Source: Octopus sinensis
Taxonomy: Eukaryota
Assembly: GCF_006345805.1 (NCBI RefSeq)
Contig: NW_021832463.1
Span: forward strand, 1 to 32,535
Direction of reading: 5' to 3'
Length of the DNA: 32,535 bases
Under the pieces are notes generated by a model. That model searched no databases, was not told where the DNA came from, and was given only the letters and a program-made list of their open reading frames with translations. The position numbers and the translations under genes were made by a program. Below are positions 5,116 to 26,315 of the stretch, piece by piece (the first letter of the stretch is position 1; each line of letters begins with the position of its first letter).

Positions 5116-6074
5116 TATTTCTCTATTGCCCACAAGAGGCTAAACACAGAGGGGACAAACAAGGACAGACAAATGGATTAAATCGATTACATCGACCCCA
5201 GTGCGTAACTGGTACTTAATTTATCGACCCCGAAAGGATGAAAGGCAAAGTCGACCACGGCGGAATTTGAACTCAGTACGTAGCGACAAACGAAATACCT
5301 ATTTCTTTATTACCCACAAGGGGCTAAACACAGAGGGGACAAACAAGGACAGACAAATGGATTAAATCGATTACATCGACCCCAGTGCGTAACTGGTACT
5401 TAATTTATCGACCCCGAAAGGATGAAAGGCAAAGTCGACCACGGCGGAATTTGAACTCAGTACGTAGCGACAAACGAAATACCTATTTCTTTATTACCCA
5501 CAAGGGGCTAAACACAGAGGGGACAAACAAGGACAGACAAATGGATTAAATCGATTACATCGACCCCAGTGCGTAACTGGTACTTAATTTATCGACCCCG
5601 AAAGGATGAAAGGCAAAGTCGACCACGGCGGAATTTGAACTCAGTACGTAGCGACAAACGAAATACCTATTTCTTTATTACCCACAAGGGGCTAAACACA
5701 GAGGGGACAAACAAGACAGACAAATGGATTAAATCGATTACATCGACCCCAGTGCGTAACTGGTACTTAATTTATCGACCCCGAAAGGATGAAAGGCAAA
5801 GTCGACCACGGCGGAATTTGAACTCAGTACGTAGCGACAAACGAAATACCTATTTCTTTATTACCCACAAGGGGCTAAACACAGAGGGGACAAACAAGGA
5901 CAGACAAATGGATTAAATCGATTACATCGACCCCAGTGCGTAACTGGTACTTAATTTATCGACCCCGAAAGGATGAAAGGCAAAGTCGACCTCGGCGGAA
6001 TTTGAACTCGGAACGTAAGGGCAGACGAAATACGGCTGCGCGTTTCGCCCGGCGTGCTAACGTTTCTGCCAGCT
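5116..6074 (-). mobile_element. tRNA-derived SINE family A (Nin/Deu-like central domain): one head plus five tandem 184-bp units
   Basis: Units start at 5116, 5300, 5484, 5668 and 5851 (plus coordinates) and are nearly identical. The head, with A-box-like agctggcagaaacgttagc, lies at 6034-6074. Each unit has the B-box gagttcaaatt and the domain gcctttcatcctttcggggtcgataaattaagtaccag. Confidence 0.92.
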
Positions 6075-6589
6075 AACGTTTCTACACATATATATGTACA
6101 CATATATATGTGTACATATATATATGTGTACATATATATATATTTCCATGTGTGTGTGTGTGTGTTTGTATTTGTACGCATGTATGTATAAGTGTGTGTA
6201 TTCTACTTTGATGTTTAATCAATCTTTTACGATCATTTGAATACTCGTTTTTATCAAAAGTCATTAGTTTTACTACGATAAACCCTGGCGCGAGTCGTTG
6301 AGCAAAAAGTATGTTTATGTCCAAATATAACTCTGCCCCAGCTGTTAGTTATCATTCAGATGTCACGCGTGACTTCCTTTACGTGGCTAATGATTTGTGG
6401 AAAATCATAATAAATCAAAAGCGTTCGAATTTTCCCAATCCGGAGTTTTTTTTTAACTATAATTTTCTAAACAAGATTTCACGATTGAAGGTGTCCATGT
6501 TTTGAGTGTTAATAAAGTGTGGTTTATATAACAAGACAAATCGTAACGCATTGGCGTGGAGATATTACTAGTCTAACCATCACAACCGG

Positions 6590-7140
6590 CACTAGCAGTA
6601 GCATCTGTAGTAGTAGTAGTAGTAGTGGTGGTAGCAGTAGTAGTGGTAGTAGTAGTAGTAGTAGCGCCAGCAGCAGCACCAGTAGTAGTACAAGCTGCTG
6701 CAGCACCATCAGCACCAGCCTTTGTAGCAGCGGTAGCAGCTGTAGTAATAACAGCAGCAGCAGTGGTAGTAGTAGTAGTAGTAGTAGTAGTACTACTAGT
6801 AGTAGTAGTAGTAGTAGCACCATCAGCAGCAGCGCCAACAGCAGCTGTAGTAGTTGTACTAGTAGCACCAGCAGGACACCAGCATGGGCACCAGTAGTAG
6901 TTGTACTAGTAGTAAATGGTTGTAGTAGTAGTAGCAGTAGTAGTAATAGTAGAGAGCAGCAGCAGCACTTGTAGTGGCTACTCCTAGTATATGTACCACT
7001 AGTATTAGTAATAGTAGCAGTAGTCATACCGTTTTTATCAATCTTGTCGTCATTACTGTTTTTATCAACTTCTCCTCCTTCTACACCTCCTCCTCCTCTC
7101 CTCCTCATCATCATCATCATCATCATCATCCTCACCATCC
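6590..7140. repeat. Compound (TAG)n/(CAG)n/(CCT)n/(CAT)n trinucleotide low-complexity tract (duplicated at about 8180-8730)
   Basis: Direct reading; source of the poly-S/L/V/H ORFs. Confidence 0.9.
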
Positions 7141-7207
7141 CCATCATCAATCGGTTTCGTCATCAGCACACGCATCGTATTCGGAGACATTCTCTCCATG
7201 TTATCCT

Positions 7208-7680
7208 TTTTGCCTTTCATCCCTTCGCGTTCGATTAAATAAGTACCAGTTACGCACTGGGGTCGATATAATCGACTTAATCCGTTTGTCTGTCCTTGTT
7301 TGTCCTCTCTGTATTTAGCCCCTTGTGGGTAGTAAAGAAATAGGTATTTCGTCTGCCGCTGCGTCCCGAGTTCAAATTCCGCTGAGGTCGACTTTGCCTT
7401 TCTTCCTTTCGGGTTCGATTAAATAAGTACCAGTTACGCACTGGGGTCTATATAATCGACTTAATCCATGTGTCTGTCCTTGTTTGTCCTCTCTGTGTTT
7501 AGCCCCTTGTGGGTAGTAAAGAAATAAGTATTTCGTCTGCCGCTACGTTCTGAGTTAAAATTCCGCCGAGGTCGACTTTGCCTTCCATCCTTTCCAGGTC
7601 GAAACACTAAGTACCAGTTACGCACTGGGGTCGACGTAATCGACTCTGCCAATCTCACCAATTTCAGTAGAAAGGATTAT
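7208..7680 (+). mobile_element. SINE family A, 5'-truncated multimer (about 2.5 units)
   Basis: Same 184-bp unit, with junctions gaaataggtatttc near 7343 and 7526. Confidence 0.9.
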
Positions 7681-7834
7681 TTAATTGCGGTTGTTTTTGG
7701 TTTTATTACTCTTGTTGGTTCGCTCATGATAAAGTCTTGATCGAACAAACCTATCCCAATCCCAAACAATATCGGACCCTATCCCTAATCCTAAACTATC
7801 TTTCTTGCTTATTTAGGAGTACTACGTTTAATAT

Positions 7835-8143
7835 GGAGGCGCAATGGCCTAGTGGTTAGGGCAGCGGACTCGCGGTCGCAGGATCGCGGTTGCGATTCCA
7901 AGACCGGGCGTTGTGTGTGTTTATTGAGCGAAAACACCTAAAAGCTCCACGAGTCTCCGGCAGGGGATGGTGGTGATCCCTGCTGTACTCTTTCACCACT
8001 CTTTCTCCCACTCTTTCTTCTGTTGGCCTGCTCGCTTAGCCAGCGGGGGTGGCGTCATTCGAAAGCTAAAACAATGCAAACGCATTGTGACCAGCGATGT
8101 GTAACAACATCTGATGGTCTGGTCGGTCACGTGACGTGACGTG
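7835..8143 (+). mobile_element. tRNA-derived SINE family C (tRNA-Arg-like head; possibly octopus OR-type), full length with TSD
   Basis: A-box tggcctagtggttagg, B-box ggttgcgattcc, (GTGAC)n tail, and TSD acgtttaatat at 7824-7834 and 8144-8154. Confidence 0.9.
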
Positions 8144-8184
8144 ACGTTTAATATATCACCAGTATATCACCTTTTGTAGCAGCT

Positions 8185-8220
<36 letters not shown>

Positions 8221-8799
8221 TAGTATAGTATAGTAGTAGTAGTAGTAGCGCCAGCAGCAGCACCAGTAGTAGTACAAGCTGCTGCAGCACCATCAGCACC
8301 AGCCTTTGTAGCAGCGGTAGCAGCTGTAGTAATAACAGCAGCAGCAGTGGTAGTAGTAGTAGTAGTAGTAGTAGTAGTACTACTAGTAGTAGTAGTAGTA
8401 GTAGCACCATCAGCAGCAGCGCCAACAGCAGCTGTAGTAGTTGTACTAGTAGCACCAGCAGGACACCAGCATGGGCACCAGTAGTAGTTGTACTAGTAGT
8501 AATAGTTGTAGTAGTAGTAGCAGTAGTAGTAATAGTAGTAGTAGCAGCAGCAGCACTTGTAGTGGCTACTCCTAGTATATGTACCACTAGTATTAGTAAT
8601 AGTAGCAGTAGTCATTACCGTTTTTATCAATCTTGTCGTCATTACTGTTTTTATCAACTTCTCCTCCTTCTACACCTCCTCCTCCTCCTCCTCCTCATCA
8701 TCATCATCATCATCATCATCCTCACCATCCCCATCATCAATCGGTTTCGTCATCAGCACACGCATCGTATTCGGAGACATTCTCTCCATGTTATCCTCT

Positions 8800-9272
8800 T
8801 TTTGCCTTTCATCCCTTCGCGTTCGATTAAATAAGTACCAGTTACGCACTGGGGTCGATATAATCGACTTAATCCGTTTGTCTGTCCTTGTTTGTCCTCT
8901 CTGTATTTAGCCCCTTGTGGGTAGTAAAGAAATAGGTATTTCGTCTGCCGCTGCGTCCCGAGTTCAAATTCCGCTGAGGTCGACTTTGCCTTTCTTCCTT
9001 TCGGGTTCGATTAAATAAGTACCAGTTACGCACTGGGGTCTATATAATCGACTTAATCCATGTGTCTGTCCTTGTTTGTCCTCTCTGTGTTTAGCCCCTT
9101 GTGGGTAGTAAGAAATAGGTATTTCGTCTGCCGCTACGTTCTGAGTTAAAATTCCGCCGAGGTCGACTTTGCCTTCCATCCTTTCCAGGTCGAAACACTA
9201 AGTACCAGTTACGCACTGGGGTCGACGTAATCGACTCTGCCAATCTCACCAATTTCAGTAGAAAGGATTATT
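8800..9272 (+). mobile_element. SINE family A multimer (duplicate of 7208-7680)
   Basis: Part of the 1.59-kb duplication. Confidence 0.9.
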
Positions 9273-9427
9273 TAATTGCGGTTGTTTTTGGTTTTATTAC
9301 TCTTGTTGGTTCGCTCATGATAAAGTCTTGATCGAACAAACCCTATCCCAATCCCAAACAATATTCGGACCCTATCCCTAATCCTAAACTATCTTTCTTG
9401 CTTATTTAGGAGTACTACGTTTAATAT

Positions 9428-9736
9428 GGAGGCGCAATGGCCTAGTGGTTAGGGCAGCGGACTCGCGGTCGCAGGATCGCGGTTGCGATTCCAAGACCGG
9501 GCGTTGTGTGTGTTTATTGAGCGAAAACACCTAAAAGCTCCACGAGTCTCCGGCAGGGGATGGTGGTGATCCCTGCTGTACTCTTTCACCACTCTTTCTC
9601 CCACTCTTTCTTCTGTTGGCCTGCTCGCTTAGCCAGCGGGGGTGGCGTCATTCGAAAGCTAAAACAATGCAAACGCATTGTGACCAGCGATGTGTAACAA
9701 CATCTGATGGTCTGGTCGGTCACGTGACGTGACGTG
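9428..9736 (+). mobile_element. SINE family C (duplicate of 7835-8143)
   Basis: Part of the 1.59-kb duplication; same TSD. Confidence 0.9.
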
Positions 9737-9840: not shown

Positions 9841-10390
9841 CAGCAGTTGTGGCTACTACTAGTATTTGTACCAGTAGTAGCCACTACCAGTACAAATGGT
9901 ACTGAGGTTTGAGGTCGATCTTGGCTGCTATTTCTAGCGGATTAACCAATTACGTCTATATTCCCCGCTCGGTTGCGTCTCATGTTCATTGGTCGAGTTT
10001 ATCATTGTATCATGAAGGACGTTACTCCCTCAACCATCTCATTTAAAATTCCATCTTGCAAAGTCTTCATTTTTTTCTTTGTTGTTCGAGGGTGATTTGT
10101 CTGCTATTTTTAGCGGGTCTAGTGAGCAGCTTTTATAATTTCCAATTCAGCGTACAATATTAAGTGCTCCATGGACTCCCTCAGATATCTTATTCCGATA
10201 ATGTTCCTGCTGTAGAGCCATAAATGGAACATTATCACTTTGCGTCATTTCTTCGAAAATCTCGGAATTTATGTCTGCCTAAGAAGCAATTATCTTCTGG
10301 ATGACATCATATACAATATGGAGGGCAGCAGAATGGTTGGAATTGTACAATGCCCTACTAAAAGCATAACCGTATCTTGTTACTCGCAAT

Positions 10391-10464
10391 TAAAACTGAA
10401 CTTAAATTTAAAACTGAGTTTGAATTTAAAACTGAGTTTAAATTTAAAACTGAGTTTAAATTTA
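10391..10464 (+). repeat. Minisatellite, 4 x 18 bp (taaaactgagtttaaatt)
   Basis: Four adjacent copies with 0-2 mismatches. Confidence 0.9.
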
Positions 10465-10821: not shown

Positions 10822-10910
10822 TACACGGGCAGTTGTGCAGGTATAATCGGCGAAGCGGATGTTGTGAGTGTGTGTAAAACCGAAACAACTGTACAATCAT
10901 TGTCATTGAA

Positions 10911-11586
10911 ATCAGAAATACTAAATTTCTAAATCTCTCGTAGAGACATGTACGGTGGTGGGGGCGATAGAATGGCTGTATACTGTCAATCTAACACGAA
11001 CGTGACAGTACACCACCGCTGTTTAGCCCTAGGAAGCATCGACGCCTCCTGATGGCTTTGACACATTTTTCCTGTGTCCTTATATACATTTACGAAGGGG
11101 AGACAAATACCCCCGGCCGCCCGGGCTGCATCTTGGGACACGTGTTTCAGAATGATTGTCCTTCGGCGGCCTACGTACCCCCTACTGTCACCTTCGTGTT
11201 AGATTGACAGTATACAACCATTCTATCGCCCCACCACCGTACATGTCTCTACGAGAGATTTAGAAATTTAGTATTTCTGATTTTGATAATCAGTGTATAG
11301 ACTTCACTGAAATTTAGATATATACATTGCGAGTCGAGACAAATATCGTCAGCTGACCGGTGTCTGCTACTCTAGGCCGACGAAGGACAATCATCCTGAA
11401 ACACGTGTCCCTAGATGCAGCCCGGGCGGCTGGGGGTATTTGTCTCCCCTTTGTAAATGTATATAAGGACACAGGAAAAATGCGTCAAAGCCATCAGGAG
11501 GCGTCGATGCTTCCTAGGGCTAAACAGCGGTGGTGTACCCCCCCCTACTGTCACGTTCACGTTAGATTGACAGTATACAACCGTTC
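10911..11586 (+). mobile_element. Retrozyme-like non-coding element: inverted partial copy (10911-11173) + 360-nt monomer (11175-11534) + terminal redundancy (11535-11586), with 13-bp TSD
   Basis: The reverse complement of 10911-11173 matches 11373-11534 followed by the monomer start. gtacccc..tactgtcac recurs at 11175 and 11535. Flanks are cattgtcattgaa (10898-10910) and cattgttattgaa (11587-11599). Confidence 0.85.
11371..11415 (+). ncRNA. Type I hammerhead ribozyme motif (U4C core, palindromic helix III)
   Basis: tctagg-CCGACGA-agga caatca tcct-GAA-ACACGTGT-C-cctaga; predicted cleavage after C11409. A second, more mutated copy lies on the minus strand at 11131-11173. Confidence 0.8.
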
Positions 11587-11861
11587 CATTGTTATTGAAT
11601 CAGGCTGAAACGTATAATGGGAATTAGGTTATAAACGGAGAGGAACTTCGTTATGGGAGCCATTAATTCAATTGCTTGCAACCCTGAGAATAATTTTCTG
11701 ACCTTACAATTAATGACCCTAGATTAATGAACAACACAACTGAATTCAGCTTAGCAAGATTTGACCACAACCACACAAAGAACAACTCAAATTCCTAAAG
11801 CACGTGACTCTGCTTCAGGATGTCCGATATATACATACAATTACATGAATAATCTTAATTA

Positions 11862-14304: not shown

Positions 14305-14634
14305 AATTTGAACCAATCTATAATTTATAGATGAACACGACCGTATGAATCCCGTGTATGAAATGTCAGGAATTTAAATATTCCGAATATATTTTATAGA
14401 TTTAGTGTTGCAGAGTGTATCAATGTATTAATATTGAACCAAGTAACTATTTCTCAAAGTAAATGAAAAAAGCACCGGAAGCAGTGAAATAAAAACAGAA
14501 CGTTCAATAAAGCTGGGCTTTAACCCTTTTACTTCCGGTGTATCCGTTCGTCGTGTCTTTCAGTGTTAAACGTAACCTGTATAAAAATTATGTAGTGAAA
14601 TAGTTGGATATCTTACAACAGACAATTAACCATA

Positions 14635-14677
<43 letters not shown>

Positions 14678-14704
14678 GTTGTTGTTGTTGTTGTTGTTGT
14701 TGTT

Positions 14705-15236
14705 AGCAATACTTTTGTTAGCCGCTCTCCAGCCATCTATTTAAAACTGTATACAGCTATGGTACGACCACACTTGGAATTCGCATCATCAGTTTGGAAC
14801 CCCTATCTTGCTCAGAACATTGACCTCCTGGAATCTGCCCAGAGACGTGCAACCAAACGCATACCCTCCATCAGACACCTACCATATTCTGAGCGCCTTG
14901 TTTCCCTGGGCATGGATTCACTGAAGCTCCGGCGTCTGGCGACGGACTTGATAAACACCCACAAAGTTATCAACCACCTCACCAACAACAACACTGAACA
15001 CCTTTTTGATCTCCATGTGTCTAACACACGTGGACATGCCTACAAAGTCAGAAAACAACACAGCTCCCATGCCTTTCGGAAACATTTTTTCACGCTCAGA
15101 GTTGCTGAAGCATGGAATAAACTGCCTGCGTCAGTTCTTGACTGCCATGACACTGCATCCTTTAAGGCCCTCATGCTTTCCGAAATCCGCCGAAACTACA
15201 CCTGATTATATATACACTTTAGATGTACTGTACACA

Positions 15237-22982: not shown

Positions 22983-23422
22983 AAATGACATGAGCCACCC
23001 TTAGCCACCCCAAAAGCAGGTCTTAACCCTAAAAAAGTATTGCTTTGTGTCTGGTGGGATTGGAAAGGAATTCTGTACCATGAGCTTCTCCCAAGTAACC
23101 AGACAATTAATTCTGAGAAATACTGCACACGACTGGACGAGTTGAAAGCAGCAATTCAAGAGAAACGTCCAGAATTGGCCAACAGGAAGGGTGTTGTTTT
23201 TCAACAAGATAATGCAGGATCGCACGTTTCTTTGGGAACCAGACAAAAATTACTAGGATGTGTTACCCAACCCTCCATATTCACCAATATTGGTCCTTCG
23301 GATTTCCACTTGTTCAGGTCTCTGCAATAGACTTAATGATAAAAATTGCAATTGCTTGCATGACGTAAAAAGAAATCTTGATGAATTCTTTGCCATGAAA
23401 CTACCTCAATTCTGGAAAGAGG
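22983..23422 (+). mobile_element. mariner (DD34D) transposase fragment, frameshifted
   Basis: TPKAGLNPKKVLLCVWWDWKGILYHELLPSNQTINSEKYC..LDELKAAIQEKRPELANRKGVVFQQDNA..H...TRQKLL / DVLPNPPYSP / IGPSDFHLFRSLQ / ...FFAMK..QFWKE; no TIRs seen. Confidence 0.93.
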
Positions 23423-24917: not shown

Positions 24918-25502
24918 CAACCAACATCACGGTATTGGATACTGTGCGATGTCTTAATAATAATAAGCAGAAGAAGAAGAAGAAGAAGAAATAAATAAAT
25001 AGAGAAAGAAAGAAAGAAAGAAAGAAAGAAAAGAAGAGATAAAAAGAAGACATTGTACAGTAGAGAGGTAATATGTTACAGTGGAACTAAAGTAGCAAAG
25101 TAATGAAGAAAAAAAAATTAAAAAGAATGAAAAAAAAAAAAAGAAATTTAACTAAATGACTTAATTTTACATTCCAATAAGTCATAATTATTATCGAATA
25201 TTTTAACAAAAGCCAGATGTGTTAAATTGAAATAAAGCTATTAAAATGGCATTGATATAAGAGATGGAATTAAAATGTATACGAAAAGAAATATGATCAG
25301 CTGCTTTTAGAAACGGTAGAAACGTGATTTGCAACTAACTTTATTTATTTTGTTACTGGAGATTCAAAATAGTCAAAGTTAGTTAACTCTGACCGTTAGA
25401 ATCAAGCACCGAATTTATCTGGTCCGGATTATTCTCTGTATAGTGTTTTAATTGAAGAGAAATAACATTTTCTTGTGTTCCTTTGTACAGTCGCTAGTTT
25501 CT

Positions 25503-25686
25503 GCACGCATTTTTTTTCTCTCCTTGTTTCTCTCCGTGTTTTTTTTCTGTGTATCTTTCTGTTGAAGAGCGTAGTGTCGAAACGTAAAAGACTTGTTTTA
25601 TTTATATTCCTGAGCGCCATACTAATACAATTGTTTGTTTGTATTCCACCTGCCTTCGTCTTTTGTTTATTTTCATAAAGCTTCCC
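25503..25686 (+). mobile_element. HHR-like repeat family H-B; motif at 25554-25591 (core CUGUUGA)
   Basis: tcttt-CTGTTGA-A-gagc gtag tgtc-GAA-ACGT-A-aaaga; helix I is perfect and helix II is damaged. Confidence 0.72.
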
Positions 25687-25706
25687 GTAATATATGTAGC
25701 ATATGC

Positions 25707-26315
25707 AAGGCGGCGAGCTGGCACAGACGTTAGCAAGCCGGGCGAAATGTCTTAGCGGTATTTCGTCTGCCGTTACGTTCTGAGTTCAAATTCTACCGAG
25801 GTCGACTTTGCCTTTAATCCTTTCAGGGTCGATTAAATAAGTACCAGTTACGCACTGGGGTCGATATAATCGATTTAATCTTTTTGTCTGTCCTTGTTTG
25901 TCCTCTATGTGTTTAGCCCCTTGTGGGTAGTAAAGAAATAGAAATAGGTATTTCGTTTGCCTTTAAGTTCTGACGTTCTGAGTTCAAATTCCGCCGAGGT
26001 TGACTTTGCCTTTCATCCTTTCGGGGTCGATTAAATAAGTACCAGTTACGCACTGGGGTCGATATAATCGACTTAATCCGTTTGTCTGTCCTTGTTTGTC
26101 CTCTCTGTGTTTATCCCCTTGTGGGTTGCAGAGAAATAGGTATTTCGCTTGCCTTTGTGTTCTGTGTTCAAATTCTGCCGCGGTCGACTTTGACTTTCTT
26201 CCTTTCGTGGTCGATAAAGTTGACTAATTAAGTACCAGTTTGCGTACTGCTGTCGGTCTAAGAGACTGGCCCTTCACCTAAAATTGCGACCCTTGTGCCT
26301 AGAGAAGAAACGAAT
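25707..26315 (+). mobile_element. SINE family A: head plus three tandem units, the last with the alternative 3' tail
   Basis: Head aaggcggcgagctggc; junction gaaataggtatttcg near 25947 and 26139. Confidence 0.92.

Follow-up and report, generated by a model that had tools for sequence, protein, structure and literature searches.

What is the two-armed insert of ~0.7 kb found at positions 10898–11599 (flanking direct repeats included) of this DNA, and how did it enter the genome? We analyzed it within the window, which is the whole 32,535-nt stretch of Octopus sinensis DNA. A sequence-only reading of the window had proposed a retrozyme that was inserted in one reverse-transcription event, with its 5' part inverted. 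Much of this proposal stood: the unit is non-coding, multi-copy and hammerhead-bearing, and a single retrotransposition event with a PLE-like inversion and a TSD was supported. The 5' inversion of one cDNA did not stand, as the inverted part behaves as a second, separately primed cDNA. With considerable confidence in the two parts of the reading taken together, we interpret the insert as one inserted copy of an animal non-LTR retrozyme, here a non-coding hammerhead repeat with 360-nt units that is dispersed in the genome; a PLE priming at two sites likely mobilized it in trans. The features of the insert are listed in Table 1.

Table 1. Features of the insert in window coordinates; m denotes the position in the unit, with m1 at window position 11175.
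Feature	Position	Strand	Remarks
TSD, left copy	10898–10910	+	12/13 nt identical to right copy
Inverted arm	10911–11173	-	m199 to m107; terminus is family end site B; tail-bearing
55-nt tail, sites A to B	10911–10966	-	at inverted-arm end only; 100% to 11229–11283
Damaged second hammerhead copy	11131–11173	-	helix I truncated; core and helices altered
Forward arm	11175–11586	+	one full unit plus ~50 nt; terminus is family end site A
360-nt unit	11175–11534	+	46% GC; 64% paired in predicted circle
Internal tail copy	11227–11281	+	site A at 11226 (m52); site B at 11281 (m107)
Predicted rod, hammerhead at tip	11319–11465	+	11319–11376 with 11410–11465; compensatory changes in sister families
Type I hammerhead	11371–11415	+	U4C core, minimal palindromic helix III; predicted cut 11409/11410
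Terminal redundancy (start of second unit)	11535–11586	+	
TSD, right copy	11587–11599	+	

The restart of the unit at 11535 was confirmed by self-comparison, and the inverted copy indeed begins within helix I of the hammerhead and crosses the unit junction, as had been described. The unit period is either 360 or 363 nt and is set by a C-run. The two arms differ at 6 of 165 sites. Both TSD copies directly abut family end sites; the 13-bp repeat reported earlier was present, but its identity was not perfect because of one mismatch. By eye, the window copy consists of one B-ending and one A-ending arm (its BLAST match overran into the flank), and both insertion flanks were single-copy in genome G000. 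The unit had been said to hold no credible ORF, and the longest ATG ORFs on the circularized unit were only 47 aa (+) and 56 aa (-). No frame for an RT plus GIY-YIG protein was detected in the unit or the window, either among ORFs or by tblastn with PLE proteins. The segment at 25429–25785 was considered as a PLE ORF1 and rejected, as tblastn gave no PLE match anywhere in the window. Because it has only one intact hammerhead and long inverted arms, the window copy is most likely inert; unable to release a monomer alone, it is probably a dead end.

The type I hammerhead had been recognized from the sequence, and we confirmed it and added two details, a U4C core (CCGACGA) and an A-U pair at 10.1–11.1. 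Helix I is formed by 11371–11376 with 11410–11415 and helix II by 11384–11387 with 11394–11397, and helix III is a single C-G pair with a palindromic tetraloop. These helix sizes are those of the common type I form in animals, for which PMC4209133 gives a helix I of 6 bp, a helix II of 4 bp and a tiny palindromic helix III. An Rfam scan gave no match at the gathering score; it missed the plus-strand motif itself and returned one irrelevant match (E 5.7). The exact 35-nt hammerhead pattern had 104 matches in G000 and a control pattern had none, showing that the hammerhead repeat is not due to chance. The covariation suggested as a check was found in helices I and II, which had been left free in the search pattern: among 25 related motifs, pairing was 71.7%, versus 54.4% in shuffled sets (0/500), which exceeded all slid controls, kinship among the motifs being uncorrected in these values. 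Rod pairs were compensated in sister families as well.

U4C was present in 96 of the 100 matches listed for the 35-nt pattern and in 133/137 aligned rows of subfamilies A and B. It also occurs in further relatives of the unit, and subfamily C and sister family D have the canonical core instead. A viroid hammerhead with the same core change was reported to be considerably slower in vitro, yet sufficient in vivo (PMC3088659). Compared with that viroid variant, U4C is nearly fixed here in genomic subfamilies A and B, and must therefore have been present while those subfamilies spread. We infer that the hammerhead cuts slowly, probably as a dimer. Natural U4C and canonical copies provide material for testing whether cleavage matters to spread.

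The rod, the side hairpins and the helix closing the end of the unit on its start, all of which had been proposed previously, appeared in the MFE fold (z -7.6 for the linear form). Circular folding, another suggested check, gave -125.8 kcal/mol and z -7.1, and the predicted circle has z -6 to -7 overall. In comparison with sister families, 12 native pairs of the rod and hammerhead were compensated, plus one non-native pair (13 in total), and 23 pairs of the window fold were broken in at least two relatives. In the predicted fold preferred by the monomer, core positions 6–8 pair with loop III, and this fold lies ~5 kcal/mol below the one-pair active fold. Core position 7 changes together with its partner among subfamilies (C-G, U-G, U-A). 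Judging from this one site, such pairing of the modeled core with loop III could stop the monomer from cutting itself.

A search of genome G000 yielded 2,014 candidates, and all 40 that were scored (window copy included) were near full length at 92–100%. The exact 17-nt end motif had 3,110 matches, compared with one for a control. The genome thus contains thousands of pieces, among them head-to-tail units, which excluded a single-copy sequence. Insertions in our sample are mostly dispersed and 0.2–1 kb long, and most copies are short 3' pieces. Once 15 overlapping loci and one duplicate had been removed, 102 loci remained, in which we mapped 108 insertions. Two subfamilies were represented by 57 and 50 insertions (1 was unassigned), and both are young, since they diverge from their majority by only 2.7% and 1.9%. 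Sister families are overall 72–90% identical to the unit. One of them, family D, has 227 exact junction matches, 353–360-nt units, 72–80% identity and a canonical core. The canonical-core pattern identified 64 further motifs, mostly in more diverged related families. Additional diverged hammerhead families, with other palindromic helix III loops and U3-A8 variants, were noted at L173–L198, L280, L290, L302, L306, L308 and L312. The unit was also matched by contigs of a second organism. Four contig sets of presumed RNA origin covered 28/28 unit bins (X1, X11 and X15) or 24/28 (X9), and are uninformative regarding a circle. The deep X11 contigs were rejected as an autonomous partner: they matched the unit only in part and continued into other sequence, and the letters at their junctions proved to belong to a sister family of retrozymes.

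Permuted copies with different start points had been expected. The 5' ends of arms are indeed variable, but the 3' ends are not free and fall at two fixed sites. Among 156 outer 3' ends, 69 were located at m43–53 (site A), 61 at m98–118 (site B) and 26 elsewhere, so that 130/156 were in one of the two zones, with peaks at m52 (48 ends) and m107 (37 ends). The sites are 55 nt apart, and it is the B-ending arm that carries the tail. Two head-to-head arms were found in 48 of the 108 insertions. Whenever both ends of a two-arm insertion were at A or B, one was A and the other B (34/34, p 6e-11); the remaining 14/48, with the window copy counted among them because of its BLAST overrun, had at least one end elsewhere. 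The same arrangement was observed in all 16 clean cases of a sample picked only by paired end motifs (four complex cases, L236, L260, L265 and L273, were omitted), and in 8/8 insertions of sister family D, a count that omits two cases with read-through and three others for which the second arm was unavailable. The family, whose ribozyme unit is non-coding, carries a PLE insertion signature and follows it almost without exception: one arm ends at A, its partner at B.

A (TA)n flank was present in 62/105 insertions, and sites A and B both terminate with a short AT motif, which corresponds to TA targets. TSDs of the family are 10–15 nt long; at non-TA sites, 10 of 44 were at least 11 nt, versus 6/300 shuffled pairs. 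Both sites lie just 3' of a predicted hairpin, and A is within an unpaired AC-rich stretch.

Several properties of these insertions are shared with those of EN+ PLEs. Inserted PLEs often have an inverted 5'-truncated copy and a 30–40-bp tail at one end (PMC8557442), an anatomy also described in PMC3846280. Mobilization in trans by terminal sequences is likewise described for EN+ PLEs in this literature. In vitro, a purified PLE protein initiated reverse transcription within the RNA at two sites, which mark the limits of the tail; it cut both strands at AT-rich DNA and was predicted to be a dimer (PMC11167929). The retrozyme insertions likewise have two 3' end sites with a tail at one end, an arm that is inverted and 5'-truncated, targets that are AT-rich or (TA)n, and TSDs within the 8–15 nt described for these elements in the three papers. 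The unit differs from EN+ PLEs in that it has no RT-EN frame and that its hammerhead is full-size, with a long rod, rather than minimal. Its tail is also longer (55 nt), compared with 30–40 nt in PLEs (PMC8557442) and ~40 nt in the commonest PLE of G000. On this basis, a PLE reverse transcriptase-endonuclease would copy the unit into the genome in trans. The enzyme would nick both target strands 10–15 nt apart, and each nick would prime its own cDNA, one starting at RNA site A, the other at site B. These cDNAs would be extended for variable lengths on an uncut template and then be joined head to head via microhomology. The strict division between A and B is not accounted for by the in vitro data, in which the RT start sites were identical whichever target strand was used (PMC11167929). 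A 360-nt substrate with exact predicted start sites is now available for testing strand-specific double priming in vitro. The unit acts like a SINE-type parasite of PLEs, and is neither an autonomous PLE nor a viroid.

What RNA served as the template? The cleavage site was spanned by 128/163 arms, and two or more such sites by 12/163, in loci that had been chosen because they were full length or had an intact hammerhead, a choice that inflates these read-through counts. Arms started at the cleavage site in only 4/163 cases, with no pile-up of 5' ends. An excess of 5' ends at m194–202 (17/163) is probably due to the picking of loci by the hammerhead pattern together with TA microhomology. Judged from these arms, the template was likely not cut at the ribozyme site and was possibly circular. 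Diagnostic sites differed between arms of the same insertion at 19 of 463 positions, versus 44% between insertions. This sharing of subfamily alleles fits one RNA or one source, and gene conversion could add to it. Rare alleles were shared at 22% within the same arm, 11% with the other arm and 0.7% between insertions. In L022, L027, L090, L117 and L118, some tandem rounds share rare alleles that are absent from other rounds of the same insertion, and part of the tandem structure is likely a later duplication. Shared rare alleles were rejected as proof of a rolling circle, as they are confounded by such duplication.

A serious competitor, to which we assign a little below an even chance, keeps the same family and enzyme but has as the template a linear RNA transcribed straight through tandem genomic copies; the hammerhead would be weak or vestigial in U4C subfamilies, and a circle would not be needed. 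The near-fixation of U4C (133/137 rows) and the longest arm observed, only about three units, agree with it, as do the reports that PLE insertion in vitro did not require cleavage (PMC11167929) and that 8/9 Xenopus retrozyme dimers did not cleave (10.64898/2026.07.22.740005). In contrast, a circular form would agree well with the rod and the closing helix (z -6 to -7), rare alleles are shared more within insertions than between them, and retrozymes of similar size from mussel, coral and axolotl are reported to form circles (PMC7229834). Between a ligated monomer circle and an uncleaved multimer as the template, we see about equal chances.

Another explanation would derive the inverted arm from one priming event, by snap-back of the growing cDNA, by self-priming on antisense RNA (proposed in PMC3846280) or by L1-style twin priming. 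The shared subfamily alleles of the arms and the short junction overlaps (1–5 nt in 17/33 clean two-arm cases) could be accommodated by this explanation. The anatomy of the arms speaks against it. Snap-back requires that the tail-bearing arm contain the other arm, and this was not so in 17/33 cases, the window copy included. In these 33 cases the arm reaching further 5' was the A arm 17 times and the B arm 16 times, arm lengths were uncorrelated, and a symmetric hairpin was never observed (0/33). Twin priming yields adjacent, non-overlapping segments, whereas the arms of retrozyme insertions overlap. We therefore consider a single priming event quite improbable and retain two separately primed cDNAs.

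Genome G000 contains intact-looking RT plus GIY-YIG PLE frames (775–781 aa), and in the commonest of the PLE families sampled, 3' ends lie at two sites ~40 nt apart and the targets are (TA)n. To find a partner of the unit, we scanned for the GIY-YIG family, examined 20 longer regions, and used blastn as well as local alignment with shuffles. No convincing DNA similarity of the unit to PLE regions was detected in 50 loci around GIY-YIG matches, with 150 of 5,029 candidates scored. A few alignments, in AT-rich stretches, scored 1–7 points over the shuffle maximum and were not accepted. One abundant PLE family (L153–L156) has an upstream ORF (479 aa in L153 and L156) that overlaps a 781-aa RT-GIY-YIG frame; close to the end of this PLE is a minimal hammerhead-like motif of the U3-A8 type, and its 3' ends are of two kinds, ~40 nt apart. 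In a second PLE family (L151 and L157), a minimal hammerhead-like motif was seen by eye downstream of the ORF, with C at core position 4 in one copy and T in the other. A small inverted-repeat insertion with a helix III-like palindrome was noted ~650–1100 nt downstream of the GIY-YIG match in L133/L168; by alignment it is unrelated to the unit.

It is very unlikely that the copies are merely 5'-truncated pLTR ends of an autonomous PLE rather than an independent non-coding unit. Fixed ends, a tail and inversion are PLE traits, and most copies are short 3' pieces, as such ends would be. However, in subfamilies A and B, and likewise in sister family D, arms continue beyond site B through m108–198 into the hammerhead that follows, head to tail, and the rod spans both sides of the hammerhead, with compensatory changes. 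In addition, tblastn with PLE proteins matched only 1/179 records, with ~900 nt between match and insertion. Hence the insert is not simply a coding PLE's pLTR, which had been named earlier as a case that would refute the retrozyme.

The independent retrozyme unit can be compared with the animal non-LTR retrozymes of Cervera and de la Pena 2020 (PMC7229834). Its size of 360–363 nt is close to the 350–390 nt described in mussel and falls within the 150–450 bp of retrozyme units with a type I hammerhead. Shared properties include a type I hammerhead with a 6-bp helix I and a 4-bp helix II, GC content below 50%, strong self-pairing (here in the predicted circle), absence of an ORF and a TSD longer than 4 nt. 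Consecutive head-to-tail hammerheads occur in the family (12/163 arms), and are absent from the window copy. Unlike the retrozymes of that study, the family forms mostly dispersed insertions (up to about three units in our sample) rather than long arrays and has a U4C core. Fixed A/B ends and two-arm insertions did not appear in the account given in PMC7229834, the main text of which contains the word "inverted" 0 times. Viroids are defined by having no genomic DNA counterpart; here, thousands of genomic pieces are present.

Li, Clavereau and Pollet 2026 (10.64898/2026.07.22.740005) described retrozymes as non-autonomous PLE derivatives whose insertion mechanism was still to be elucidated. The dependence on PLE enzymes proposed there is the same as ours. 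Their evidence, as given in that source, is co-occurrence and pLTR homology, mainly in vertebrates, whereas ours is insertion anatomy, and no pLTR homolog was found in the 50 sampled loci. The entry of animal retrozymes into genomes is an open question, and insertion anatomy addresses it. In our search of the open-access literature we found neither a cephalopod retrozyme nor any account of a retrozyme with PLE-type ends; a repeat catalogue such as Repbase or Dfam may already include the family.

Some retrozyme copies contain an additional element, which is absent from the window copy. At three loci found by the end motif, an element of 1.6–1.8 kb interrupts the unit at m177–193 in sense orientation, with 9–15-nt duplications. 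The three copies are ~70% identical and have a frame of 380–465 aa with a weak zinc-knuckle match, whose Atlas neighbors were CCHC or ZCCHC3-like clusters (0.90–0.92). No ORF2 was detected in seven longer regions around this ORF1-only element. Its 3' end had 141 exact matches in G000; of 40 sampled, 20 ran into the unit within 60 nt (BLAST) and about six more, by eye, into hammerheads of other sister families. Junctions between the element and retrozymes are of several types, some of them multi-copy. Loci with the element (L259, L260, L261, L319 and L321–L325) place it just upstream of the hammerhead. Two-armed insertions whose arms extend through the hammerhead into the element were found in L321–L323 and tandem runs of it in L259, L319 and L325, and since both elements are contained in these two-armed and tandem copies, the composite must have moved as a unit.

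We moderately favor repeated targeting of retrozymes by the ORF1-only element, which may be a retrozyme-targeting parasite; an old, co-evolving retrozyme/ORF1 composite is a less probable, though still plausible, origin. A more elaborate scheme, which we offer tentatively and consider doubtful, is that an ORF1 parasite of ~1.7 kb targets the 5' strand of the rod across retrozyme families, that the composite is moved by the two-site PLE mechanism, and that tandem 2.1-kb units bounded by hammerheads are coding circular RNAs. If true, PLE, retrozyme and ORF1 element would be three levels of one system, of which we found no description in the literature searched. That a LINE enzyme, for example that of a partner of the ORF1-only element, moves the unit is also very improbable: the ORF1-like element is tightly associated with the family and 10–15-nt TSDs are a LINE trait too, but the insertions have no poly(A) or repeat tail, they end at two internal sites of a repeating unit, and their two-arm, one-tail anatomy is that described for PLEs (PMC8557442, PMC3846280).

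Other repeats were observed elsewhere in the window. A SINE-like unit of 184–198 nt forms tandem arrays at 5116–6033, 7209–7645, 8801–9236 and 25757–26215, and a block near 6500–8020 recurs near 8100–9610. The frame at 14630–15205 (+) resembles what we take to be a LINE 3' end, and that at 22989–23330 (+) is presumably a piece of a mariner transposase. An 18-nt AT-rich tandem repeat (4.2 copies) is located at 10390–10464, ~430 nt upstream of the insertion.
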